Source: a virus. From it: a stretch of 64,000 nt of DNA. The stretch lies in the UHGV virus genome UHGV-1451962; one strand, 5' to 3'. The position numbers and the translations under genes were made by a program. Below, one piece after another: positions 1,049 through 63,867 of this stretch. Position 1 is the stretch's first letter, and each line of letters starts with the position of its first letter. The notes below the pieces were generated by a model that did no database searches, was not told where the DNA came from, and worked only from the letters and a program-made list of their open reading frames with translations.

Positions 1049-3304
1049 TTATAAATGTTTTACTCTCATAGAGACTTCTTGCTGTTTACCTAGATTAAAT
1101 GCAGTTTTATAATCTCCTGTTAAATAACCGGTTACTCTTCTTAATTGTTGAATATGACTACTGCCACATTCAGGACAATTATCATTAAATTCATCACAAT
1201 ATCCGCACTCTAAACAAGTATCATTAGGTACATTAATTGCAAAATAAGGGATATCTTTATCCATAGCATAATTTACTATAATTTCTAATGCTTCTAAATT
1301 ATTTTTTACTGTTGAATCTAATTCAATATATGTAATACAACCAGCACTTGAATATCCTGTTAATTGAGATTCTATATCAATTTTTTCAAAAGGAGACATT
1401 TCCTTCCAAACAGGAACATGTATGCTATTTGTAAAGAAATCTTTATCTGAAACATTAGGAATAATACCATATTTTTCTTTAAATTTTTCCATTGCTGTAT
1501 AAGCTAAATTTTCTGCGGGAGTGTAGTAAACACCAAAATTTAACTTATAATATTCTTTAAATTCTGCACAACGCTTTTTAAATAAAGATTCAATTTTTTT
1601 TGCTAATTCCATTCCTTCTGGAGTGGTGTGATCCTGCCCAATTAGAATTTGAAGAGTTTCAGCAAGACCAATTTGACCCAAAGCTAAAGTCCCATGCTTC
1701 AGAGCACTACGGATACCTTCTTCTGGAATATATCCTGCCATAACATTATTTTCATACATGAATTTAGCTGACTCAGGAGATTGAGAACAAATCCATTCAA
1801 AGCGTTCAATTAACATATCTTTTGCTTCATTAATTTTTTGATCTAATTTATAAATAAATCTATCAATTAAAATTTGATTGCTATCGAAAGAATGATGATT
1901 TCTTACATCTTCCTCAAAATTAATTTTACATTCCATCGCCAAAGTAGGCATAATAATAGTTACAGGACAAATATTTCCACGTCCATCTTTACGTTGTCCT
2001 AGGCCATTAATGTCCCATCCATTAGCCGTTCTACACCCCATCGTCGAGAAATATGTACACGGATCGTCTGGATTATAACCTTCATTTCCACTCCAATCAA
2101 CATTTGCGTAATTAGGATATAATCTTTGAGCGGTTGATTTCAATGCTAATTGATATAAATCATAATTTGGATCTCCAGGTTTACGATTTATATTTTTCAT
2201 CATTTGGAAAATTCCGCAAGGGAAAATACTTGTTTTATGTAATTTTCCAATTCCTTTTATTGAAACATCAAGAAGAGCTTTAGTTACTAAACGTCCTTCT
2301 GGCAGTACACAAGTGCCATAGTTAATTGATGTAAAAGGTAATTGATTCCCAGAGCGTGATTGTAGTGTATTAAGATTGTGGTACATTCCTTCAACAGCTT
2401 GATAGATTTCTTTTATTGTCATATCCATAGCATATTTATATGGTCTATTTCCAATTCCTATCTGTGTTAAAAATTCAATATTATTTATAGAACAATTTTC
2501 TTTTAAAAGATTTATTTTCATTTCTGCGCAGCTACTATCAGACCAATCGCAAAAATATTTTAATCCATCACAATAATGTTTATAAAAACTTTTTCTTACA
2601 TAAGGTACCATTGTCCAATCTAAGTGAGTTGCGCTCACGCCGCCAAACTGCTGCAAAGATTGTAGCTGAAAAATAACTGCGACAAGTTGAAAGGCGGTAT
2701 TAACACTTTGAGCTGGTCTTACATCTGTTTGGCGTGTATTAAAACCATTAGCAAGCAAATCGTCAAAAGGAATAGATAAACAATTATGACTACCTACATA
2801 ATAACTACCCAAATCATGAATATAAATTTCATTATTTAAATGATTTTTTCTTGCCATAGGCGAAACAATATAATCCAAAGCTAATTGTTTTGTAACTATA
2901 TCACTTGCTTCTCCAGTTCTTCCACCAAAAGAAGATTCATCAACATTTGCATTTTGATTTTGAATATTGGAAGCATCAAGTTTTTCTCTAATAGCATTAA
3001 TAAAATCATTTTTCTTTTCTCTTGCTACTTCTTTTTTATATCTAAAACGAATATAAGCTCTAGCTACATCTCTTCGATAAGATTGCATTAAAAAATCTTC
3101 AACCCAATCTTGAATATCTTCAACGCCAATACTACCATCAGGATAATGCTGCATTTTTTTTTCAATTTCATTTGCTATATCTTTTGCGGTATCATCCTCA
3201 TATAATTGTCCATCTACTTCAATGAAAGCTTTATTAATTGCATTAATAATTTTATTTTTATTAAAAACCGCGATTGAACCATCGCGTTTAATTAAGTCAA
3301 ACAT
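1049..3304 (-). CDS. nrdD: Anaerobic ribonucleoside-triphosphate reductase (class III RNR)
   Basis: 751 aa; N-terminal ATP-cone, C-terminal Zn ribbon CLECGYCDEFNDNCPECG and glycyl-radical motif RRVTGYLTG. Confidence 0.9.
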   Translation of the reverse strand: MFDLIKRDGSIAVFNKNKIINAINKAFIEVDGQLYEDDTAKDIANEIEKKMQHYPDGSIGVEDIQDWVEDFLMQSYRRDVARAYIRFRYKKEVAREKKNDFINAIREKLDASNIQNQNANVDESSFGGRTGEASDIVTKQLALDYIVSPMARKNHLNNEIYIHDLGSYYVGSHNCLSIPFDDLLANGFNTRQTDVRPAQSVNTAFQLVAVIFQLQSLQQFGGVSATHLDWTMVPYVRKSFYKHYCDGLKYFCDWSDSSCAEMKINLLKENCSINNIEFLTQIGIGNRPYKYAMDMTIKEIYQAVEGMYHNLNTLQSRSGNQLPFTSINYGTCVLPEGRLVTKALLDVSIKGIGKLHKTSIFPCGIFQMMKNINRKPGDPNYDLYQLALKSTAQRLYPNYANVDWSGNEGYNPDDPCTYFSTMGCRTANGWDINGLGQRKDGRGNICPVTIIMPTLAMECKINFEEDVRNHHSFDSNQILIDRFIYKLDQKINEAKDMLIERFEWICSQSPESAKFMYENNVMAGYIPEEGIRSALKHGTLALGQIGLAETLQILIGQDHTTPEGMELAKKIESLFKKRCAEFKEYYKLNFGVYYTPAENLAYTAMEKFKEKYGIIPNVSDKDFFTNSIHVPVWKEMSPFEKIDIESQLTGYSSAGCITYIELDSTVKNNLEALEIIVNYAMDKDIPYFAINVPNDTCLECGYCDEFNDNCPECGSSHIQQLRRVTGYLTGDYKTAFNLGKQQEVSMRVKHL

Positions 3305-3366
3305 TATTACACCTCTATATATATTTTATTGATACATATTATATATACAAATTGTAGTATTTTTAT

Positions 3367-3927
3367 TTAAAAGATTTGTCCAGCAATACGTTGCACGCTA
3401 GTTGTAAAATCTTTTCTAGTTAAATTTTTTAAAACTTCACAATTAAATTCTGAAACAAAACTTCTAAAATCTTTTTCATCTGTCTCATATCTACGGATAA
3501 TTTCTTCAATATTAGGTTCTTTTTCTCTATTGAGTTGTCTTATCAATCTCTCCTTATTTGATACATCTATATAAAAAATCTTTAAAATAATATTTGGATT
3601 ATCTTTCAAAATTTCTAAACCTTCTGGATTAAAAACCCCAATATTAATTTTATCTGTATCAAGAGTAGAATAAGAAGTTCCATAACACCACCCGTTAAAT
3701 GAAGTAGCTTCTAGCATGTCTCCATTTAAAAGTTTAACCGCAAATTCTTCATTGGTAAGATAATGATAATCTTTTCCTTCTGTTTCATTATCTCTTTTAG
3801 GTCTAGTAGTACAAGAAATAATTGGATTTAATTGCGGATTAAGCTTAATGGCGGAGGAAAGAATAGAATCTTTCCCCGCACCACTTTTTCCTGCAATTGC
3901 AATAATTTTAATCTTCTTCATCTTCAA
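3367..3927 (-). CDS. Guanylate kinase-like nucleoside monophosphate kinase
   Basis: P-loop GKSGAGKDS and TTRPKR...EGKDYHY guanylate kinase signature. Confidence 0.7.
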   Translation of the reverse strand: MKMKKIKIIAIAGKSGAGKDSILSSAIKLNPQLNPIISCTTRPKRDNETEGKDYHYLTNEEFAVKLLNGDMLEATSFNGWCYGTSYSTLDTDKINIGVFNPEGLEILKDNPNIILKIFYIDVSNKERLIRQLNREKEPNIEEIIRRYETDEKDFRSFVSEFNCEVLKNLTRKDFTTSVQRIAGQIF

Positions 3928-7769: not shown

Positions 7770-7798
7770 ATTATATCATATTTTTTTAATTTTTTAAA
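7770..7798 (-). promoter_or_regulatory. Sigma-70-type promoter (TTTAAA-N17-TGnTATAAT)
   Basis: Reverse complement reads TTTAAA, 17-nt spacer, TGATATAAT, upstream of dnaE RBS. Confidence 0.35.
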
Positions 7799-8991
7799 AC
7801 AAGAGTAAGTTTTTCAGATGCACGAGTCACTAAAGTATATAAATATCTTTTATGTTCTTCTTGTTTAAAAGGAAAGTTTTCTTCAATACCTAATACCTTT
7901 TGATATTCGCTGCCTTGTGCTTTCCAACAAGTAATTGCATAACCATAGTCAAAACTTTGAAGTTTGTAATTTTTAGGTAAAAGATAATAATTATCTTGAG
8001 TAACACTTGGCGTATGATTTACTAATTGATTATAATCTACATTATTCATAGAAAATAATCCTAAAAGATTTTCATCATCGTATTCTTCTGGCATAAAATC
8101 TAATTTAAGAATATTATCTTTTAAATTTTTATCATATAAAACCTTATAATTTTTGATAGTTCCAATTGCACCATTAATAAGTGGGTCTTCCAAAGAATTT
8201 AATTTTTTCCAATCATTATGCAGACAAATAATTTTATCTCCAACAACAGGAAGAGCACCTGAATCAACGCCCCAGAATAATTTGCGGCAAACATCATTTA
8301 AGTAATATCTAGTATCATTTTTAGCACAGATAATCTGATCTGCCCAAGCTAGCATACCTTGATTTAAATCAGAAGCACAAACTACATTTACCTCTTTTCC
8401 TTTAAAAGGTTTAATAAGTTTGCCATTTCTAATATCCATGCTTAACCTAATAATTTCACTTTCTTGCGCTTGTCGCATAATTTCATCAAGAAAAACATGT
8501 GGATTATTTAGAATATCTGTTCCTTCTGTTAAAGCAGGTAACTGACCAGGGTCACCAGTTGCTAGAACAGGAATGTGATGGGAGAGAAGAAGTTCCCACA
8601 TTTTTTTAGGTAACATGGAAATTTCATCTACCACAATAAGTTTATAATCATCAATAGTCAATTTAGGATAAAATCTATATGTTCCATTAGGATTTTTTAC
8701 AGCTTTATAAAGTAACTTATGAGCAGTCATTGCATTTTTATTACCTTTTGATTTTAAAACTTTAGCGGCTTTACCTGTATAAGCAATAAAAGCTACATCA
8801 TTTTCTTTATCTAAATTTAAAGCATCAATAATAAAACCTACTAATGTGCTTTTGCCAGCTCCAGCGTATCCCGAAATTACAGTATATGGTTCTTTAGATC
8901 TATATCTTTGTACTGCAATCTGCAATCCTTGGTATTGTTTATCAGTTAGAGTCATTTTTATCCTCCAAAAGGTTTTCTCTAAGAATATCAA
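7786..8991 (-). CDS. RecD/PIF1-like ATP-dependent DNA helicase
   Basis: Walker A GYAGAGKST, Walker B VVDEISML, C-terminal CWKAQGSEY motif; true start may be internal Met (MTLTDKQ). Confidence 0.7.
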   Translation of the reverse strand: MIFLEKTFWRIKMTLTDKQYQGLQIAVQRYRSKEPYTVISGYAGAGKSTLVGFIIDALNLDKENDVAFIAYTGKAAKVLKSKGNKNAMTAHKLLYKAVKNPNGTYRFYPKLTIDDYKLIVVDEISMLPKKMWELLLSHHIPVLATGDPGQLPALTEGTDILNNPHVFLDEIMRQAQESEIIRLSMDIRNGKLIKPFKGKEVNVVCASDLNQGMLAWADQIICAKNDTRYYLNDVCRKLFWGVDSGALPVVGDKIICLHNDWKKLNSLEDPLINGAIGTIKNYKVLYDKNLKDNILKLDFMPEEYDDENLLGLFSMNNVDYNQLVNHTPSVTQDNYYLLPKNYKLQSFDYGYAITCWKAQGSEYQKVLGIEENFPFKQEEHKRYLYTLVTRASEKLTLVLKN

Positions 8992-9178
8992 AGAAACGTA
9001 AACAATCTCTTCTCGCTAAATTCATTCGTGTTTCAAATTCTTGGCCATTTTTAACTTCATAAATAGCTAACATCATTCTTGCGTATTTATATCTTAAACA
9101 CAAACTGTCAAAAACATATTCTTTAATTTTCATATCTTTTTCTTCAAAAACTTCTTGCAACTTATAAATATCATCCAT
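8942..9178 (-). CDS. hypothetical protein
   Basis: 78-aa ORF with AGGAGAAAA RBS; first gene after conserved upstream element copy A. Confidence 0.4.
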   Translation of the reverse strand: MDDIYKLQEVFEEKDMKIKEYVFDSLCLRYKYARMMLAIYEVKNGQEFETRMNLARRDCLRFFDILRENLLEDKNDSN

Positions 9179-9204
9179 TTTAATTTTTCTCCTATTTACT
9201 TTAA

Positions 9205-9267
9205 AAATTACTAAACTCCATTTTAATTCATCGTCTCCGCGCCGATGAGCTTCCAGCTAAAACTTTC
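9205..9267 (-). promoter_or_regulatory. Conserved ~60-nt upstream element, copy A
   Basis: Minus strand GAAAGTTTTAGCTGG...CGGCGCGGAGACGATGAATTAAAATGGAGTTTAGTAATTT; near-identical copies at 48328 and 54625. Confidence 0.4.
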
Positions 9268-9272
9268 AAAAA

Positions 9273-11009
9273 TCAAAAGAAATAATCTTGATGAGATACA
9301 ATTTCATAATCTTGAATAATTAATTGCGGATTAATGTTCCCGCAATATTCATTTATCTCACACTTACAAAGAATATCTATAATTACACAACCTTGTTCAG
9401 TATATAAGTTATTATATTCTTCTTCTCCTGATTTAAACTTAATTGCTTTTATATTATCTTTTAAATCAATTTTTAATGTAGGATTTCTATCTTTTGCCAT
9501 AAGGTGAAGATTATTTGCAGTTACTCGAATTCCTTTTATAACTATCAAAGCTTCTTCTACGTCTTTTCCCCAAAGATGTTTTAAATTACCAATATCTAAA
9601 ATGTTTTTAGCCAAAATATCAGAATATTGCCATATAAAATCTACTCTATAATCAGGAGTAAATTCCACATTTTTTAATTCTTGATTGCAATAATCTATAA
9701 ATTTCGATAAATTTTCATCTGAAATAGATAAACCATGAGCATTAGCATGTCCTTGCGCCCAATTAATTAAATTAGATTTTTGTTCAAAGGTTTGTAAATC
9801 TTTTAATTGAGATTTTTCATACCCTCTTGCTGAACCTTCCCAAATTATTTTATTGTCTATATTATATTCATTTAAAATAATAACAGGACGCTGGTACTCT
9901 GAAACCAGTCGATTTGCAATTAATCCAGAAATAGATCTATTAATTGGCTCTTCTGGAGTTGATTGAATTATTAAAATTTTATTTTTTAATAAATCTTTTT
10001 CTTCAATTTGATTACTAATAATCTCAATGTTTTCATCTCTAATTTTATTTTGATGATTTTTAATATTATTACTCATTCTAACCGCTTGAGTAACAATTGC
10101 TTCCATTTGTCCTTTGCATCCTCGTTTAGTAGAAGGAATTTGATTTAAAGCTTTCCAATTAAGCATTGCTTCAAATAATATTTTCTTTTCTTCTTTTGTC
10201 CCCAATCTAGCAACTGCATTAATATAAGGTACAATATAAAAAGCAACTCCTATGGATGTAATATTGGTACCTAATTGATAACTATTTTTTTCTACCATTT
10301 CTCGCATAAAAGGATTTTGAATATTTTCTAATCCTTTTCTAGTTAAATAAGATGTTTCTAAATCTCTTAAACTCATAACGTCTCCTGTTAAACCAAGAGA
10401 CACTAAATCAAGAAAATTATCTGCGTAATCGAAGTTAAGTAAATTATCAATATACTTACAAAATTTATATACCATACCTGCACCGGATAATGATTTAGTT
10501 GGATAATCACAGAGTTGATTGTTTATCACACAGGCGAAAGGACTAACTTTATCTGCTTTATGATGGTCAATTACTAAAACATCAATTCCTTTATTGGATA
10601 ATTGTTCATGTATATCATACTCATTACTACTAGAGTCTAAAGCTATAACCAATTTAGTTTCTTGCGGAATTTGGTCTAACCAAATACCATGAGCTTTATG
10701 CGGGTGAAAATCATAAATAATATTTGCTTCTACTATTGATGGAACAATTTTATATAAATAATTTAAAAAAATAGCAGCAGAAGTAAATCCATCATCATCA
10801 TCATCTACAATTAAATAAATTAAATCTTTTCCTAAGTGACGAAAAAGCATTTCTACTCCTTGCTGCATATTATTTATTAAATTTGGATTATAAATAACAG
10901 AATCATTTGGATTCAAATAAGTTTGTATATCTTGAATCCCTCTGTTATTTAAAATTTGTTCCACTATTGATTTATTTGAATCAATAGGATTAATTAATTT
11001 ATAGTTCAT
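9273..11009 (-). CDS. RecJ-like DHH-family single-strand DNA exonuclease
   Basis: DHH phosphoesterase motifs IVDDDDDGFTSAAI and LVIDHHKA. Confidence 0.7.
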   Translation of the reverse strand: MNYKLINPIDSNKSIVEQILNNRGIQDIQTYLNPNDSVIYNPNLINNMQQGVEMLFRHLGKDLIYLIVDDDDDGFTSAAIFLNYLYKIVPSIVEANIIYDFHPHKAHGIWLDQIPQETKLVIALDSSSNEYDIHEQLSNKGIDVLVIDHHKADKVSPFACVINNQLCDYPTKSLSGAGMVYKFCKYIDNLLNFDYADNFLDLVSLGLTGDVMSLRDLETSYLTRKGLENIQNPFMREMVEKNSYQLGTNITSIGVAFYIVPYINAVARLGTKEEKKILFEAMLNWKALNQIPSTKRGCKGQMEAIVTQAVRMSNNIKNHQNKIRDENIEIISNQIEEKDLLKNKILIIQSTPEEPINRSISGLIANRLVSEYQRPVIILNEYNIDNKIIWEGSARGYEKSQLKDLQTFEQKSNLINWAQGHANAHGLSISDENLSKFIDYCNQELKNVEFTPDYRVDFIWQYSDILAKNILDIGNLKHLWGKDVEEALIVIKGIRVTANNLHLMAKDRNPTLKIDLKDNIKAIKFKSGEEEYNNLYTEQGCVIIDILCKCEINEYCGNINPQLIIQDYEIVSHQDYFF

Positions 11010-25182: not shown

Positions 25183-25611
25183 TTAAATTAATTCTGCGAG
25201 TTCTGCTATTTTAGATCTATGGATATTATTTAAAGTTACTTCTCCATAAATATCAGAACCTCTAAAAATTTTAGACATTCTTCTCATGCCATTGTTATTA
25301 CCAGAATAAGCTAATGAGTCAACTTGCGTTTTAGCATCACCATCAATAATACAAATACAATCTTCACCAATACGTTGAAGAGCTAATTTAATTAAAGTTC
25401 TGTCTAAATTTTGTGCTTCTGTTATATAAATACCTGCGTTCATTCCGCTAGTATCATAACCTCTAATATCGCTAAAAGGCAATAAAACTAATTTATCTTC
25501 TTCCATCATACGAAGAACACCTTCTTTACCGCCCAATTTGGCGGAAAGCATATTACCAATTTGTGAGTCAAGTAATTTATCGTCTTTTGTACCTGGGTAA
25601 ACATTAAACAT
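25183..25611 (-). CDS. phoH: PhoH-like ATPase, downstream exon (Walker B half)
   Basis: Contains PhoH motifs IYITEAQNL and IIDGDAKTQVD; lacks Walker A, which lies in ORF 26878..27747. Confidence 0.65.
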   Translation of the reverse strand: MFNVYPGTKDDKLLDSQIGNMLSAKLGGKEGVLRMMEEDKLVLLPFSDIRGYDTSGMNAGIYITEAQNLDRTLIKLALQRIGEDCICIIDGDAKTQVDSLAYSGNNNGMRRMSKIFRGSDIYGEVTLNNIHRSKIAELAELI

Positions 25612-26877
25612 TATAGCTTTCGCTATAAACCTGACTATATCTTATTTCAAACTATTTTTTAAACTAATATATTTATCATATTTTCTTTTTAAAAATCTTG
25701 GATTATTATCATAAAGAGTATTTAAAATATTTAATACTTGTATTCTACCTCTCCATTGTGTATGCCACGCGGTAGTATAAAAATTTTTGTTTTTTTTATC
25801 TGATTGTATTAGAAGGTTTATTATATTTTGAAAATCTTCAACTTCTGTCTCACAATAAGCTGTATAACTTAATGTTACATCTGTGCTAAAATTTTTACTA
25901 TATGAAAGACCGCCATCACCATCAAATAAACCTAAAGCATAAGCTGATAAATATTCTTTAGGGATTTTTTCATAAGGAATATGTGTTATTTTATAAGTTT
26001 TATTTGGCACTATATTATATTTTGCTAAGTCATTATAAATTTGTTCATCTACAAATTCAACTGAACAACAAGTGCTATTTGGACGAATATCATAGATAAT
26101 TTTACTATCTATTTGAATATCATTTTTAAATTTTTCAAGAAGTTCTATATCTTGTTCTTGAATTTGTAATCTAATTCGCCCAGTTTTTCGATAATGGTCT
26201 ACACTTCCATCTGTAAATAAAAATCCTAGCCAATATGCTTTAATAGGAGAGTCGATAATTGAAAAATAATCACTTTTAATTCTCCTATTAATTTTATTTG
26301 TATTTGTAACTTTGATATTTAATTCTTTTAACCTTTTCTTCGTTGTTTCAACATCCAAATTACAATATTTAGCAATTTCTTTAAGAAAAGCTCCTTCTTT
26401 AATCATTTTTTTAATAGTAATAATTTGTTCATCAGATAAATTTTTCTTTTTTCTTCCACCTCTTATTACAACATTATTATCTGTAAGAAGTTTTGTTAAA
26501 TTACGTCTATTATAAGAAGGATATTTTAAAAGTAATTTAGTTATTGACTGACCTTCTAAATACTCTTGTACAATTTGTTTTTCCATAAACTATCTCCTTT
26601 ATTTTAATATTATATATTATTTTTATTAAAGATAGTTTTTCTTTGTTTGTCCAAAATTTTTCAGTTTGAAATCCATGCGCTTCGGAATTTTACTTCCTAC
26701 TCTACTCCCTTACTATAGTTTCGATAGTCGATGAGCCTTCCTCTATTCGAGGCTTGGTTGCTGATTGTCCAATCTATATTATTTTTAAACGTTCACGCTT
26801 AGATTTATTTCATTCTTACGTTGTAGTTAATATAGCTCTAAGGATGTTCCAGCAGTTCACATGGTTTTACTTGAGCC
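25612..26877 (-). mobile_element. Putative group I intron interrupting phoH, carrying a LAGLIDADG homing endonuclease ORF
   Basis: GC-richer, stem-rich ~290-nt segment (26590-26880) plus free-standing endonuclease ORF between the two phoH halves; boundaries approximate. Confidence 0.5.
25642..26586 (-). CDS. LAGLIDADG homing endonuclease (double-motif)
   Basis: Two LAGLIDADG motifs: YWLGFLFTDGSV and AYALGLFDGDGGL; own RBS AAAGGAGATAG. Confidence 0.8.
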   Translation of the reverse strand: MEKQIVQEYLEGQSITKLLLKYPSYNRRNLTKLLTDNNVVIRGGRKKKNLSDEQIITIKKMIKEGAFLKEIAKYCNLDVETTKKRLKELNIKVTNTNKINRRIKSDYFSIIDSPIKAYWLGFLFTDGSVDHYRKTGRIRLQIQEQDIELLEKFKNDIQIDSKIIYDIRPNSTCCSVEFVDEQIYNDLAKYNIVPNKTYKITHIPYEKIPKEYLSAYALGLFDGDGGLSYSKNFSTDVTLSYTAYCETEVEDFQNIINLLIQSDKKNKNFYTTAWHTQWRGRIQVLNILNTLYDNNPRFLKRKYDKYISLKNSLK

Positions 26878-27747
26878 TTACCCTATTTTAATTAACCCAA
26901 GTCTTGCGGAATTAATAGTTGCCACTGTATTACAAAAGATTATAATTTTATCTATTCTATTTTTTTCTAACATATACATTAAAAAAGCTAGAGAAATGTA
27001 AGATTTTCCTACTCCTGCTGGGCCTTGTAACAAAGTAATTTTATTATTAGCTAAACTATCAAAAGCACATTTTTGATATATGTCTCCTTGATATGGTTGT
27101 ACTTTTCCAAACCAGGTAGAATCAAAAGTAGGAAATTTTAAGTAACGATAAGTTTCTCCTGACCAAACCCGCACATCTATAAGTTCATCAAAATTATCAG
27201 GATTTTTTAAAAGTAGATATTCTCCTTTTTTAAGATTAAAATGATTATAGTTAGGATTTTCATAAAATTTAGAAATTAATTCTTCACTAGCAGTAATTTC
27301 TGCAATTCCACTATAAGTATCTAAATCTTCCTCAATAGAAGAAACATTTTCTTTGGGAAACAAACATAAAGCAATATGTTTTAAACTTAAATCATTAGTT
27401 ATAAATTCTAAACATTTATTTGTTTCAAACTCATTCCAAGCATCAGACAAAATTCTAGCATCATCATTAATATCAAAATTCATTTTATCTAAAATGTATT
27501 CATAATTTATTTGATGAATTTTAACAGAATAATTATTTGGATATTTTTCAAATAAATGAAGCAAAAGTCTTGCGGAATATTTTATATCAGAATCTTTATT
27601 TGCCGCAGTTTTAATTCTTTCTAATTCTTTTAAAGTAATAGAAGAAATGATAAATTTCTCATCATCTTCAAAAGCTGATTCTCCGGCTAATAAAAGACTA
27701 CAAGTATCGTAGAATTTAATAATAATTTCCACTCTCCTATTGTTCAA
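26878..27747 (-). CDS. phoH: PhoH-like ATPase, upstream exon (PIN-like N-domain plus Walker A)
   Basis: Walker A LLQGPAGVGKSY near C-terminus; last residues probably intron-encoded read-through. Confidence 0.65.
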   Translation of the reverse strand: MNNRRVEIIIKFYDTCSLLLAGESAFEDDEKFIISSITLKELERIKTAANKDSDIKYSARLLLHLFEKYPNNYSVKIHQINYEYILDKMNFDINDDARILSDAWNEFETNKCLEFITNDLSLKHIALCLFPKENVSSIEEDLDTYSGIAEITASEELISKFYENPNYNHFNLKKGEYLLLKNPDNFDELIDVRVWSGETYRYLKFPTFDSTWFGKVQPYQGDIYQKCAFDSLANNKITLLQGPAGVGKSYISLAFLMYMLEKNRIDKIIIFCNTVATINSARLGLIKIG

Positions 27748-28238: not shown

Positions 28239-28324
28239 TAAAATTCTCCTATCTTATTTTATATTATAATTATATCATAAATTCTGAGAAAAATAAAATT
28301 CTTGGTATTTGCGTAAAAAATTGC

Positions 28325-28400
28325 TAGAGGCGCGAAAATTCGGCGACACGGGCTGCCACGAGTATGCACGAAGACCCTAGAGCAAAAGTACTCTAGGGTC
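28325..28400. other. GC-rich structured intergenic element with terminal 10-bp perfect hairpin
   Basis: ggcgcgaaaattcggcgacacgggctgccacgag then GACCCTAGAG...CTCTAGGGTC followed by TTT; composition sharply different from flanking AT-rich DNA. Confidence 0.35.
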
Positions 28401-47959: not shown

Positions 47960-48229
47960 TTAAGTTACTTCTCCACCATCATATATGTAAGTATTGTCAG
48001 GTGAAGGTGAATCTCCGCCACCACTTCCGCCAGAATTTTTTTGTAAAATCCATTCTTTTGAACTATTTAACATATATCTTTCTGAAGTAGAGATAACTAA
48101 AGCTTCACTTCCTGTGGCGTAATTCTTATAATTATCTAAATTAGGTATATCAGCTTTTGTATCACAAAGAAGTCTAATAGTTCCATAAGCTTTTCCACCT
48201 AAATTAAATTTACTATCTATAGTAATCAT
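47960..48229 (-). CDS. hypothetical protein
   Basis: 89 aa, Gly/Ser-rich C-terminus; first gene after conserved upstream element copy B. Confidence 0.4.
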   Translation of the reverse strand: MITIDSKFNLGGKAYGTIRLLCDTKADIPNLDNYKNYATGSEALVISTSERYMLNSSKEWILQKNSGGSGGGDSPSPDNTYIYDGGEVT

Positions 48230-48327
48230 TTAAATTACTCCTTTCTTTTAAAAGTTTAGTTTAAATTTATCCCTTCTATTTTTTTTAAAATTTAAGTAAA
48301 TTCTTAAAATATCTTTGACCAAGAAAA

Positions 48328-48385
48328 AAATTACTAAACTCCATTTTAATTTGCCCGTGTCCGCGCCGGCCTGTTTTCTGCATAA
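48328..48385 (-). promoter_or_regulatory. Conserved ~60-nt upstream element, copy B
   Basis: Minus strand ...GGCCGGCGCGGACACGGGCAAATTAAAATGGAGTTTAGTAATTT; 24-nt core identical to copy A. Confidence 0.4.
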
Positions 48386-48390
48386 AAAAA

Positions 48391-48415
48391 TACCTCAAGT
48401 TTTAAACTTGAGGTA
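48391..48415. terminator. Bidirectional rho-independent terminator hairpin
   Basis: TACCTCAAGTTT/AAACTTGAGGTA flanked by A7 and T5. Confidence 0.55.
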
Positions 48416-48465
48416 TTTTTCAGAAAGGGGGAGTTTTAAAAGTAAGCTACTTAAAATAGCTAAAA

Positions 48466-48541
48466 TGGCAGCGGCAGTTGGATTTGAACCAACGGATATA
48501 CGGGTCAAAGCCGTACGTCTTAACCACTTGACTATGCCGCT
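48466..48541 (-). tRNA. tRNA-Gln (anticodon TTG)
   Basis: Acceptor AGCGGCA/TGCCGCT, anticodon arm TACGG-CTTTGAC-CCGTA, T-arm GTTGGTTCAAATCCAAC, CCA. Confidence 0.75.
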
Positions 48542-48559
48542 ATATCAAGATGCTATTAA

Positions 48560-48680
48560 TAAACCTTATAGAAATATATTTACTATATAGTATTTTAATA
48601 AACTTTATAGAAATATATTTACTATAATATACTATTTTTATAAACCCTATAAAAATATATTTGTAATAATTATTGCTGGA
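48560..48680. repeat. Three ~38-bp imperfect direct repeats (iteron-like)
   Basis: aaccttatagaaatatatttactata... repeated three times. Confidence 0.5.
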
Positions 48681-49056: not shown

Positions 49057-49175
49057 ATATAAATTAGAAATAATTATCTATCACTAATAGTAATTACTTC
49101 ATCAGAAAAAATCATATCATCCAAATCCATAAGGCAGCTCTCCTTTCTATATTTAATTTTTGCTAGACTCTTTTA

Positions 49176-49250
49176 AACCAGAAATGGGAATCGAACCCAT
49201 ATTTTTACCTTTTCAAGGGTAATGTCTTAACCTTTTGACTATTTCAGAAT
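49176..49250 (-). tRNA. Atypical tRNA-like element (possible pseudo-tRNA or expanded-anticodon-loop tRNA)
   Basis: Canonical T-arm ATGGGTTCGATTCCCAT but apparent 8-nt anticodon loop CTTGAAAA on TTACC/GGTAA stem, poorly paired acceptor, no CCA. Confidence 0.35.
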
Positions 49251-49863: not shown

Positions 49864-49927
49864 ATTGAGATTTACTAGACAGTTTTAAACAAAATAAATA
49901 CCTTACCAATAGGCTACTTTACAGACT

Positions 49928-49961
49928 TGTAAAGACAGGAATCGAACCTGCATGTCATTAC
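49928..49961 (-). ncRNA. tRNA minihelix-like element (acceptor stem plus T-arm only)
   Basis: Minus strand GTAATGA-CATG-CAGGTTCGATTCCTG-TCTTTAC: canonical T-arm between 7-nt complementary arms, no D or anticodon arm. Confidence 0.3.
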
Positions 49962-49989
49962 TTATATAAATATTGCTGTGTCTGTCTAA

Positions 49990-51152: not shown

Positions 51153-51184
51153 TATTTTTATTCCTTTCTTAACTTTGTATATAT

Positions 51185-51213
51185 ATTATATCATTTATTT
51201 TTTAAATTTTCAA
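51185..51213 (-). promoter_or_regulatory. Sigma-70-type promoter (TTGAAA-N17-TGnTATAAT)
   Basis: Reverse complement TTGAAA, 17 nt, TGATATAAT. Confidence 0.55.
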
Positions 51214-51214
51214 A

Positions 51215-53823: not shown

Positions 53824-54600
53824 TCAATTTTTTTCTGTCAAACTAATATATTCATTCATTTTATTAGAAATTAAAATTGCGTTTCTACATAAATGACAAG
53901 AAATATCTGGTTCTTGACATCTCTGTCCGCAATTCAATCTGTTTGAACAAAAACTATTTGCAATATAAATATTATTAGTTGGTAAATTTAGTTGTCTAAT
54001 TAAATTATTTAAATCAAAAGGAAAAATCTTTCTTTTATAAATATTGAATAAAGTTTCTTCTGCATCTTTGCTGTTATCTCTAAAGTCTAAAATATCTATA
54101 TATTTAGAATAATTATCTATATCTTCTGGTCGAATATAAAAAGAATTTTCATTATCTGAAGATGCCCATTGCGCGTTTGGCGACATATGCGGAGTGACCC
54201 TAATCTTTATTTTTCCTTTTGCTTTTCCAATTTTTTCCATTTGGAATCCTAAAGCTCCGTCAATATAAATATCTGAAACTCCAATATTTTTTAAATTATT
54301 AAAAGTTTCCCAATCTGAAACCGGCAAATCTAAATATACATTATAGCCTTTTGCTTTTAATTTCCGCAAATCTTGGAAATTAATTACAGCTATTGTATAA
54401 TCTTTTGCCACTTCTTTAATGAAATCAATTTGTTCATCCAATTTTTTTTCAGATAATTCACCCATATTAGTGTATTGAATATTACATCTAATATCTGGAT
54501 TTTCTTTAATTAAATCAAAAATGTCTCCCAATCTATTTACTTGACATTTGATTTCATCTGGCATTAATTTTTTTAGTCTTGTATTTAAACTATATAACAT
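53824..54600 (-). CDS. hypothetical protein with C-terminal Cys cluster
   Basis: 258 aa; CSNRLNCGQRCQEPDISCHLC; first gene after conserved upstream element copy C. Confidence 0.45.
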   Translation of the reverse strand: MLYSLNTRLKKLMPDEIKCQVNRLGDIFDLIKENPDIRCNIQYTNMGELSEKKLDEQIDFIKEVAKDYTIAVINFQDLRKLKAKGYNVYLDLPVSDWETFNNLKNIGVSDIYIDGALGFQMEKIGKAKGKIKIRVTPHMSPNAQWASSDNENSFYIRPEDIDNYSKYIDILDFRDNSKDAEETLFNIYKRKIFPFDLNNLIRQLNLPTNNIYIANSFCSNRLNCGQRCQEPDISCHLCRNAILISNKMNEYISLTEKN

Positions 54601-54624
54601 TGTTATTCTCCTTTATCTTTTAAA

Positions 54625-54687
54625 AATTTGTTAAAGCCATTTTTATTCGCACGTCTCCGCCCCGGCATAAGCCAAGCTAAAAGTTTC
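54625..54687 (-). promoter_or_regulatory. Conserved ~60-nt upstream element, copy C
   Basis: Minus strand GAAACTTTTAGCTTGGCTTATGCCGGGGCGGAGACGTGCGAATAAAAATGGCTTTAACAAATTT; aligns with copies A and B. Confidence 0.4.
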
Positions 54688-54735: not shown

Positions 54736-54761
54736 AAAGAGGAGAAAAAATTCTCCTCTTT
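54736..54761. terminator. Bidirectional rho-independent terminator hairpin
   Basis: AGAGGAGAAAAAATTCTCCTCT. Confidence 0.5.
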
Positions 54762-59640: not shown

Positions 59641-59723
59641 TATTTTGTCCTCCCTTAACTTTCTATATATATTATATCATTTATTTTTTTTAAATTTTCA
59701 ATTTTGGTTACAAAATCTTGTAA

Positions 59724-63416: not shown

Positions 63417-63867
63417 AAAAATTAATTATTTAGAATGGGGATTTCAATAAGTGGCATTTTTCATAAAGGTTGAATGCGGTAGAACTTACCTCTTGATTAT
63501 AAGTAGTAATGTTTTCATAAAGAGCAGAAGAACCAACGGTAGAAATGATTCCATTTTCTAAACAATAGGAAGAGTTAGTGGATATAATCGTTTAGATAAG
63601 TAAGTTCTACTCTTTTACCCAGATTTGGAAATGTTTATTTTCACGATTGGTGAAAATATGATTATTGTCTTCGAAGACTTTGAGAATTTGGGTTCTACTT
63701 GGCGAATTACGATATAGTGTCGGGAAAAAATTACTTGAAAACTAGAGGAAAGATTATGGAAGTGTTGGGGAAAATTACTTTTTTATTCATTTAAAATCAC
63801 CTTAGAAGTTATTTTTTCAATGGAAATAAAGAAGATTAAGGGGAAGGAGTTTACGAATTAAAGAGAT

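Follow-up and report, generated by a model that had tools for sequence, protein, structure and literature searches.

Short control sites upstream of promoters are known from several phages and bacteria. Activator or operator sites of this kind include the phi29 p4 site upstream of promoter A3, the P2 Ogr/P4 Delta sites at -55 and class I CRP-type sites. Other promoters are preceded by UP elements or upstream curved A-tracts, as in rrnB P1 and in the promoters of the Bacillus phage SP82, where the rotational setting matters. T4 middle promoters combine a MotA box at -30 with a sigma-70 -10 hexamer. Mycobacteriophages carry intergenic motifs, namely the stoperators of Cluster A and the start-associated sequences (SAS/ESAS) of Cluster K. 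Origins that consist of a promoter and an AT-rich unwinding region are represented by T4 oriF/oriG and the T7 primary origin. For jumbo phages of the AR9/PBS1 type, early promoters with the sequence AAATATATATTAT-N6-G and late promoters with AACA-N6-TA/G have been described (PMC5312081).

Here we analysed an intergenic element that is present in three copies (A, B and C) in a 64,000-nucleotide stretch of the viral genome UHGV-1451962 (the window). The element is a two-part motif in which a GC-rich part (GC box) is followed by an AT-rich part (AT box). It represents a genuine conserved motif family, previously undescribed, in a large group of uncultivated phages, and it falls outside all families tested: Rfam RNAs, sigma-70 promoters, UP elements (as judged by sequence), MotA promoters, intrinsic terminators and AR9 promoters.

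By analogy, the element appears most like phage activator/operator sites or the phased curved DNA of Bacillus phage promoters. With the phi29 p4 and P2 Ogr sites it would share a specific 20-30 bp upstream of -35, partial dyad symmetry, A/T tracts, a dependence on the helix face and a low copy number per genome that defines a regulon. It differs from them in that the GC box is found at a variable distance, the partner promoters are near consensus and some copies have no promoter. As in UP elements, A- and T-runs are phased, and in one spacing class the AT box is located at about -38 to -59; the other spacing classes are displaced by ~1 and ~2 helical turns. Unlike a UP element, the motif has conserved G/C positions (TTTAG, G after the T-run) and a GC box, and it marks few promoters. 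T4 middle promoters likewise have a phage-specific box that precedes replication genes and is often found in tandem with early units and terminators or downstream of them, and a few copies of the element read AAATGCTTA (L058, L024), like the MotA box. In contrast to the T4 MotA TGCTT(t/c)A promoters, the element lacks a TAnnnT hexamer 11-13 bp downstream, TGCTT is not conserved among the aligned copies, and no MotA or AsiA homologue was seen. The mycobacteriophage stoperators and SAS likewise are short, lineage-specific spacer motifs that are oriented with transcription and lie by gene starts or stops, but they differ in sequence, lack the bipartite build, have a far higher copy number and belong to unrelated phages. 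The window helicase is 40% identical to that of AR9, and AR9-type phages also have lineage-specific promoter motifs; however, the element contains neither AR9 promoter consensus, and no split beta/beta' polymerase genes are present in the window.

Results

Gene content of the window

The window has a G+C content of ~29%, its genes lie essentially all on the minus strand, and 17 of them encode tRNAs. It is part of a 137.5-kb genome that is available as two circularly permuted assemblies (ENA ERZ28662716 scaffold_29 and ERZ27261203 k119_109814). The replication genes in the window code for PolIII alpha, a RecD/Dda-like helicase, RecJ, a DnaB-like helicase and a primase-like protein. GyrA/GyrB, an ATP-dependent DNA ligase, RNase H, NrdD, ThyX and guanylate kinase are also encoded, as are an RNA-repair set and a tail-spike-like block, and the genome codes for a recombinase-like AAA_24 protein. 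A Pfam/PHROGs scan of ~60 window ORFs recognised no regulator, sigma factor or RNA polymerase. No DNA similarity to the window was found among GenBank phages. The closest helicases of cultured phages are those of Enterococcus phages of ~140 kb (43% identity), ahead of AR9/PBS1. Enterococcus phage EF1 also has the boundary between RecJ and helicase, but the element has no significant match there.

Three copies of the element in the window

The original prediction, made from the sequence of the window, had placed three copies in intergenic regions on the minus strand, and these are confirmed (Table 1). The window consensus is CGG[C/G]GCGGA[G/C]ACG for the GC box and AAAAT-GGN(N)-TTTA[G/A]-N-AATTTTT for the AT box. 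The GC box pattern CGGSGCGGASACG matches exactly at the three sites and nowhere else in the 64 kb; with up to three mismatches allowed, 10 matches were obtained in the window compared with 1.07 expected. An identity of copies A and B over 24 nt had been noted before, and it is in fact slightly longer, the AT boxes of the two copies being identical across 26 nt (AATTAAAATGGAGTTTAGTAATTTTT).

The prediction further assigned an upstream block, GAAA(G/C)TTTTAGCT(G/T)G, to all three sites. This is correct for copies A and C, where the block reads TTGAAA(G/C)TTTTAGCT(G/T)G, and incorrect for copy B. Upstream of copy A the block TTGAAAGTTTTAGCTGG holds a possible orphan -35-like hexamer, TTGAAA; it is common to copy C, partly shared with L001/L003/L007 and absent from copy B. 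Because the upstream block is missing in B and carries two substitutions in L249 (see below), it was treated as flank, which leaves the GAAAGTTTTAGCT block outside the conserved core.

Copy A follows the stop codon of the RecJ-like gene and lies 10 nt before a Shine-Dalgarno sequence; a 78-aa ORF and the RecD/Dda-like helicase gene are located downstream. Copy B is found downstream of tRNA-Gln and a strong intrinsic terminator and 95 nt upstream of an 89-aa ORF, in a block that includes a tail-spike-like 410-aa ORF. Copy C is located 73 nt past a terminator, and the Shine-Dalgarno sequence of a 258-aa ORF follows ~10 nt on. At A, B and C alike, the element thus lies past a terminator or gene end and ahead of the first gene of a block, as had been stated. 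At copy B, a perfect GATATT is present 19 nt past TTTAGT; this pairing is not repeated elsewhere.

A profile based on sequence only revealed no fourth copy in the window, and none is present in 9.9 kb and 8.7 kb of the same genome past the window ends, so that the copy number is three per 82.6 kb of genome. A GC-rich stretch at ~28290-28350, located between a terminator and a promoter, was considered as a fourth copy and rejected, since the profile gave no match.

Table 1. Positions of the three copies of the element and of neighbouring features in the window.
Feature	Position	Strand	Score or remark
Copy A core (GC box to T-run)	9199..9256	-	27.7 bits (profile)
Copy A GC box, CGGCGCGGAGACG	9232..9244	-	exact pattern match
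Copy A AT box, AATTAAAATGGAGTTTAGTAATTTTT	9203..9228	-	
Flank block TTGAAAGTTTTAGCTGG upstream of copy A	9253..9269	-	
Shine-Dalgarno AGGAGA after copy A	9188-9193		ATG 9176-9178
RecJ-like gene	9273-11009		
78-aa ORF	8942-9178		
RecD/Dda-like helicase	7786-8991		
Copy B core	48325..48377	-	30.8 bits (profile)
Copy B GC box, CGGCGCGGACACG	48356..48368	-	exact pattern match
Copy B AT box, AATTAAAATGGAGTTTAGTAATTTTTTT	48324..48351	-	
tRNA-Gln	48466-48541		
Intrinsic terminator upstream of copy B	48384-48420		
89-aa ORF	47960-48229		
Copy C core	54619..54670	-	37.5 bits; E = 3.5e-7 (profile without window sequences)
Copy C GC box, CGGGGCGGAGACG	54652..54664	-	exact pattern match
Copy C AT box, AATAAAAATGGCTTTAACAAATTTTT	54622..54647	-	
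Terminator upstream of copy C	54736-54761		
258-aa ORF	53824-54600		

Conservation in related phages

The sample of relatives consisted of 80 IMG/VR loci that were fetched through the helicase protein only (44-55% amino-acid identity); the loci are from contigs of up to ~200 kb, and a few are mere fragments. An nhmmer profile of 29 copies matched 41 of the 80 helicase loci with one copy each. All 41 matches are on the gene strand, 0-700 nt upstream of the helicase. When a profile was built from relatives only, the three window sites ranked 1-3 (E = 3.5e-7, 1.3e-3 and 8e-3), all on the minus strand.

In most relatives the GC box reads (C)TGCT-CCGGCCGG-AGAC. It is followed by a non-conserved stretch with a constant length of 15 nt, by CCG or TCG, and by ~10 nt ending in CCAAAT. 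The AT box of the relatives is AAAAAT-NNN-TTTAG-N-AAATTTTT-G. Partial dyad symmetry is seen in CCGGCCGG and also in the arms AAAAAT...ATTTTT. The distance between the GC box and the A-run of the AT box is 12-13 nt in the window and in L064, 21 nt in L022/L023 and 29-30 nt in most relatives. A short 'type II' form of the GC box is present in all three window copies, and the long form in both known copies within one relative contig (L114, L150). Such a use of one form per genome would be consistent with co-evolution with a single recogniser.

Additional copies elsewhere in relatives were detected by a scan with the pattern CCGGCCGG-N26-32-AAAAATNNNTTT. According to blastx against the window ORFs, the RecJ/helicase boundary of site A together with the element is also found in L099/L104/L116/L131/L146/L150, and the site C boundary with the element in L085/L096/L151. 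At site C the synteny covers homologues of a 551-aa and a 125-aa ORF upstream and of the 258-aa, a 241-aa and a 434-aa protein downstream; these proteins are 27-48% identical to those of the relatives. Over all syntenic sites the flanking proteins show merely 27-52% identity, which means that its neighbours are less well conserved than the element itself. In L114 the element precedes a homologue of a 146-aa ORF, and in L148 it follows a homologue of a Ro-like gene.

Scans of metagenomes and genomes returned mostly chance matches, the real ones being L326, L366 and the near-identical L249. In L249 (97.2% identical) the 54-nt core of copy A (GAAGCTCATCGG...AATTTTTA) has no changes, whereas the remaining ~40 nt of the spacer have five, two of them in the TTTTAGCTGG block. 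This argues for purifying selection on the core. Upstream of the tail-fibre homologues in relatives L156-L166 the element was not found, and a peptide-pattern search for homologues of the 258-aa protein returned none. A comparison of gene families with the presence of the element picked up a lysozyme-like cargo gene alone, which reflects phylogeny. In L085 a stretch resembling the AT box after a tRNA-like sequence turned out to be part of an ordinary promoter (its A-tract and -35 hexamer).

Promoters, terminators and helical spacing

In 25 of 43 distinct copies from relatives, a sigma-70-type promoter begins -2 to +21 nt past the T-run, and in four more at 36-68 nt; these partner promoters have 9-12 of 12 hexamer matches. 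None of 46 copies has a promoter of this type within 200 nt upstream. Most of the promoter-adjoining copies lie 10-22 nt past an intrinsic terminator, and the typical order in relatives is gene, terminator, element, promoter, gene. With this arrangement, the main transcripts do not include the element, which precedes the RNA polymerase binding site. A second layout with neither an upstream terminator nor a downstream promoter is found in 14 of the 43 relatives' copies and in window copy A; here, a Shine-Dalgarno sequence and start codon are located at most 7 nt past the T-run in eight relatives' copies and 10 nt past it in copy A.

At all three window sites, hexamer scans detected no sigma-70-type promoter. 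The best matches there are 9-of-12, which is chance level, and the transcription start would fall inside or after the start codon. At the homologous units of relatives, a promoter does lie beside the element. The element had been described as distinct from TTGAAA-N17-TATAAT promoters; this holds for the window, but in relatives the element usually adjoins such a promoter.

Measured from the end of the A-run, the -35 hexamer falls into clusters at 16-19, 26-28 and 35-38 nt, and outliers are seen at 54, 76 and 86 nt. In L151, L018 and L085 the A-run ends 16-19 nt before the -35, which corresponds to the range of about -40 to -60 typical of UP elements, and in other copies 10 or 20 bp further away. 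Within each spacing class, the sequences between element and -35 are unrelated. The best fit was obtained with a period of 9.3-9.7 bp (p between about 2e-4 and 8e-4 when compared with a uniform distribution), and since the lineages are not fully independent, the phasing is suggestive, not proven. A spacing of ~9.5 bp suggests a same-face-of-helix relation between element and promoter; against such phasing, this period is shorter than 10.5 bp.

The best match to the UP consensus AAAWWTWTTTTNNAAAA averages 10.67 of 15 positions, compared with 10.58 for random windows with at least 78% A+T, and many other strong promoters of the same genome have no AT box. Thus, by sequence, the AT box looks like a specific site and not like a generic UP element. 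Comparisons by eye with consensus sequences for the host sigma factors 54, B, D, H and E/F/G/K and for SPO1 gp28 and gp33/34 gave no consistent match, and the resemblance to CodY, IHF and NrdR sites, invertase crossover sites and CRISPR-repeat mimicry is superficial only.

A candidate regulatory site on the DNA

The element likely has a role in transcription control. As the best explanation, to which we assign a probability of about 0.4, we propose that it is a DNA-level control site for a trans-acting factor and marks a small regulon. This tentative assignment draws on sequence conservation without RNA structure, co-orientation, placement upstream of promoters, phasing, partial dyad symmetry and the few copies at unit starts. 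The element would be an orientation-specific cis-regulatory module that works at the DNA level and is neither RNA nor coding. A trans-acting protein, either phage-encoded or from the host, would bind the module and act from a fixed helix face on the RNA polymerase at the promoter directly downstream. The helicase unit, the unit of the 258-aa gene and the tail-spike-like block would belong to the regulon, along with further units of relatives. The usual partner in relatives is a near-consensus sigma-70-type promoter; in the window genome the module might support a weak non-consensus core promoter, or it might itself have taken the promoter role. The consequence of the presumed protein binding could be activation, repression or insulation. 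A phage-specific promoter and an activator-binding site were both among the options of the original prediction, and both fit the position, co-orientation, synteny and ~9.5-bp steps to the -35.

Several observations speak against a regulator site. The copies of the second layout are simply intercistronic, with Shine-Dalgarno sequence and ATG following at once; a pure promoter accessory would be pointless there, and the site seems to have a life of its own. The partner promoters are near consensus, which argues against a simple need for activation. In addition, the spacing between the two boxes varies by 8-9 and 17 nt, which are not integral helical turns and would be awkward for one protein complex touching both. 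The scan of ~60 window ORFs, within the 60% of the genome that was covered, also returned no candidate for a DNA-binding regulator.

Alternative explanations

An unlikely alternative to the regulator site is autonomous promoter function, the element then belonging to a distinct promoter class that would be read in the middle or late phase by the host polymerase with a phage-encoded or modified specificity factor. Doubtful to the same degree is the corresponding architecture, in which the AT box would provide a -10-like TAGNAA/NAATTT, transcription would start just past the T-run, and the promoter would stand in tandem with the sigma-70-type promoter in relatives. The three window units without a sigma-70-type promoter are in line with this. 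Some promoter must exist at B and C, which lie behind terminators, and as the homologous units in relatives have a promoter by the element, the element alone may suffice in the window genome. Element and genes always point the same way, the A at position 2 of TAGNAA is kept in most copies, and relatives in the phage group encode a sigma factor of their own. However, this 286-aa protein, which is encoded in one group of relatives, is SigA-like, would read ordinary TTGACA/TATAAT and is absent from the window. (The 12-nt GC-box string of copy C, GGGGCGGAGACG, recurs in the intergenic spacer after the sigma-factor gene of L145.) The two conserved boxes also have no fixed spacing (12-13, 21 or 29-30 nt), and A- and T-runs, not a mixed hexamer, make up the invariant positions. 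The Shine-Dalgarno sequence directly adjoins the T-run in L001/L003/L004/L005/L007/L015/L064, so that hardly any room is left for a start that retains the ribosome-binding site. A replication unit and a tail-spike-like block would moreover be an unusual mix for one temporal class. It is with considerable reservation that we consider the element as the recognition site of an undescribed phage-encoded transcription factor or specificity subunit. Such a factor might define a small 'middle' regulon in a large phage family. In the window genome the element might have taken the place of the sigma-70-type promoter completely, which would result in a new bipartite promoter class with a variable linker. 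The family concerned would, with the same reservation, be uncultivated phages of 100-200 kb that infect gut and rumen Firmicutes. A function outside transcription, as a replication origin built of a promoter and an AT-rich unwinding region, a preferred site of the phage gyrase or a recombination or nicking site, seems improbable. The low copy number per genome, the position of the best-conserved site at the head of the helicase/polymerase region and the GC-rich box adjoining phased A- and T-tracts would suit such a site, and the genome has GyrA/GyrB, a DnaB-like helicase, a primase and the recombinase-like AAA_24 protein. It would also fit the occurrence both within operons and between terminator and promoter. 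But iterons, repeated boxes and an adjacent initiator gene are all lacking, the other copies precede the tail-spike-like block and genes of unknown function, and the strict co-orientation and the phasing to the -35 would be unexpected for an origin or topoisomerase site.

The original prediction also named a structured leader RNA, an option that the results argue against. More broadly, an element acting as RNA could be an intercistronic or 5'-leader translational operator or enhancer, a processing site or a nut/put-type protein-bound hairpin, all of which we regard as quite improbable. The strand specificity is strict, as expected for an RNA, and the element is located 0-15 nt ahead of the Shine-Dalgarno sequence, within a polycistronic transcript, in at least eight lineages as well as in window copies A and C. 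In five sequences a C-to-T change in the CCG partner retains G-U pairing with the CGG of the box, and between L085 and L145 an A-to-G and a C-to-T change retain a 5-bp stem around the GC box. Nevertheless, none of the three sites matched an Rfam family, whether the gathering threshold or E <= 10 was applied, and the folding proposed as a check gave no conserved structure: RNAalifold returned zero consensus pairs on 29 sequences, and the single-sequence folds are no better than shuffles (z-scores -0.7, -0.8 and +0.5). The sole candidate helix, CGG of the box with CCG/TCG, is paired in 62% of cells, and its covariation is within that of shuffles, 78 of 500 and 186 of 500 of which reach the observed values. 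The stem registers differ among the window copies, and the majority layout places the element outside the main transcript, with no promoter up to 200 nt upstream. Three individual hairpins were rejected: the register of the CATCG/CGATG stem around the GC box of copy A is lost in B, C and L064, the hairpin AGCTGGAAGCT upstream of copy A is destroyed in L249, and the GCGGC/GCCGC stem of the L027 group gains A-C and C-A mismatches. A small coding gene or leader peptide (MEFSNF-stop, MALTNF-stop and so on) was rejected for lack of a conserved frame and start codon. Of 29 aligned copies, 13 have no ATG where the A-run ends, and the frame of TTTAG relative to the ATG varies. A 1-nt shift separates copy A from B and C, and copy A contains an in-frame stop. 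Two frames of the consensus are closed by TAG and TGA, and the sole frame left open is the one used by all ORFs crossing the element in L065/L066, L080, L099/L131 and L039. Very improbable, finally, is a terminator-related function, either as a second or backup terminator or as an insulator protecting the downstream promoter against read-through. The AT box is part of a hairpin with the T-run or a second T-run behind it in L010, L022/L023, L024, L029 and L031, and a canonical terminator often precedes the element. A hairpin of -5 kcal/mol or better that ends at most 2 nt from the T-run was, however, found in only 7 of the 18 copies examined, the hairpin partners are non-homologous between lineages, no terminator hairpin overlaps the window copies, and the central TTTAG is kept even where TTTGG would pair better.

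Discussion

Very little is known about gene regulation in large uncultivated phages, which are abundant in gut and rumen metagenomes. The element described here recurs at the same gene boundaries across relatives, with identities of the flanking proteins down to ~27%. If it is a regulator site or a promoter class, it would provide a sequence handle for predicting co-regulated operons and a bait for the factor, as well as a test case for the timing of replication versus tail genes. If it is an origin or a topoisomerase site, it would instead locate replication control in this phage group.

Promoters, leaders and a sigma factor in relatives

The common promoters of the window have the form TTGAAA-N17-TGATATAAT and are followed across many spacers by a conserved leader, ATATATAGAAAGTTAAGGAAAGG, whose recurrence suggests a 5′ untranslated region module held in common. 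A G+C-rich stretch of 60 nt, ending in CTCTAGCAATTTTTT, has a terminator on one side and a sigma-70-type promoter on the other. This arrangement is the same as that of the element (the conserved GC box and AT box motif) in relatives; the stretch gave no match to the element profile.

One group of related phage contigs (L085, L096, L132 and L145) encodes a SigA-like sigma factor of 286 amino acids with regions 2-4, which is not present in the window. Directly upstream of its gene lies a tRNA-like sequence that received no ARAGORN call.

Gene content near the element and beyond the window

In many relatives a gene for a secreted lysozyme-like protein (motif ILGNIMxExGG) is located between the RecJ-like gene and the element; in some it forms two separate ORFs. 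Comparison of L061 with its close relative L062 revealed in-frame TAG codons in L061 at positions where L062 has GAA, a hint that some relatives may recode stop codons. A serine recombinase gene (Resolvase domain) is part of an opposite-strand block of the same genome just beyond the window, approximately 7 kb past window position 1.

The PhoH-like gene is apparently in two pieces, the N-terminal one carrying a PIN domain. Between them lie a LAGLIDADG ORF and a 291-nt spacer richer in G+C. This arrangement probably reflects an intron that carries a homing endonuclease; no group I intron was called by Rfam.

tRNA genes and a Ro-like gene

Altogether, 17 tRNA genes are encoded in two arrays in the window, one of them with a four-base anticodon (tgaa) according to ARAGORN. 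Upstream of tRNA-Gln, a unit of about 42 nt occurs as three direct repeats, and the window carries a set of 22/31-nt tandem repeats at its right end.

Coordinates of the features described (window positions unless a contig is named).
Feature	Position	Strand
SigA-like sigma factor gene	L085 9603-10460	
Lysozyme-like gene insertion	L010, L014, L018, L039, L058 and others, about 2400-3800	
In-frame TAG codons	L061 vs L062, about 3640-3800	
Serine recombinase gene	L168 16803-17420	
PhoH-like gene, whole	25183-27747	-
PhoH-like C-terminal part	25183-25611	-
LAGLIDADG ORF	25642-26586	-
PhoH-like N-terminal part	26878-27747	-
G+C-rich stretch	28290-28350	-
RNA ligase, RlaP, cREC_REC, kinase and phosphoesterase genes	28.4-37.2 kb	
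Ro60/TROVE-like gene	38351-39874	-
tRNA arrays	39.9-41.2 kb, 48.5-50.6 kb	
Promoter and leader, example spacers	41550-41692, 51153-51214, 59641-59723	-
Direct repeats	48546-48668	
tRNA (tgaa)	49175-49250	-
YrlA match	49873-49988	-
Tandem repeats	63864-63996	

The window also encodes a Ro60/TROVE-like protein (DUF2828 and DUF7788), and Rfam gave a weak match to YrlA, a Y RNA-like family, within a tRNA array (30.2 bits, E = 0.016, below gathering). A further region contains genes for an RNA ligase, RlaP, cREC_REC, a kinase and a phosphoesterase. Taken together, these look like a toolkit, carried by the phage, that combines Ro/Y-RNA with RNA repair.
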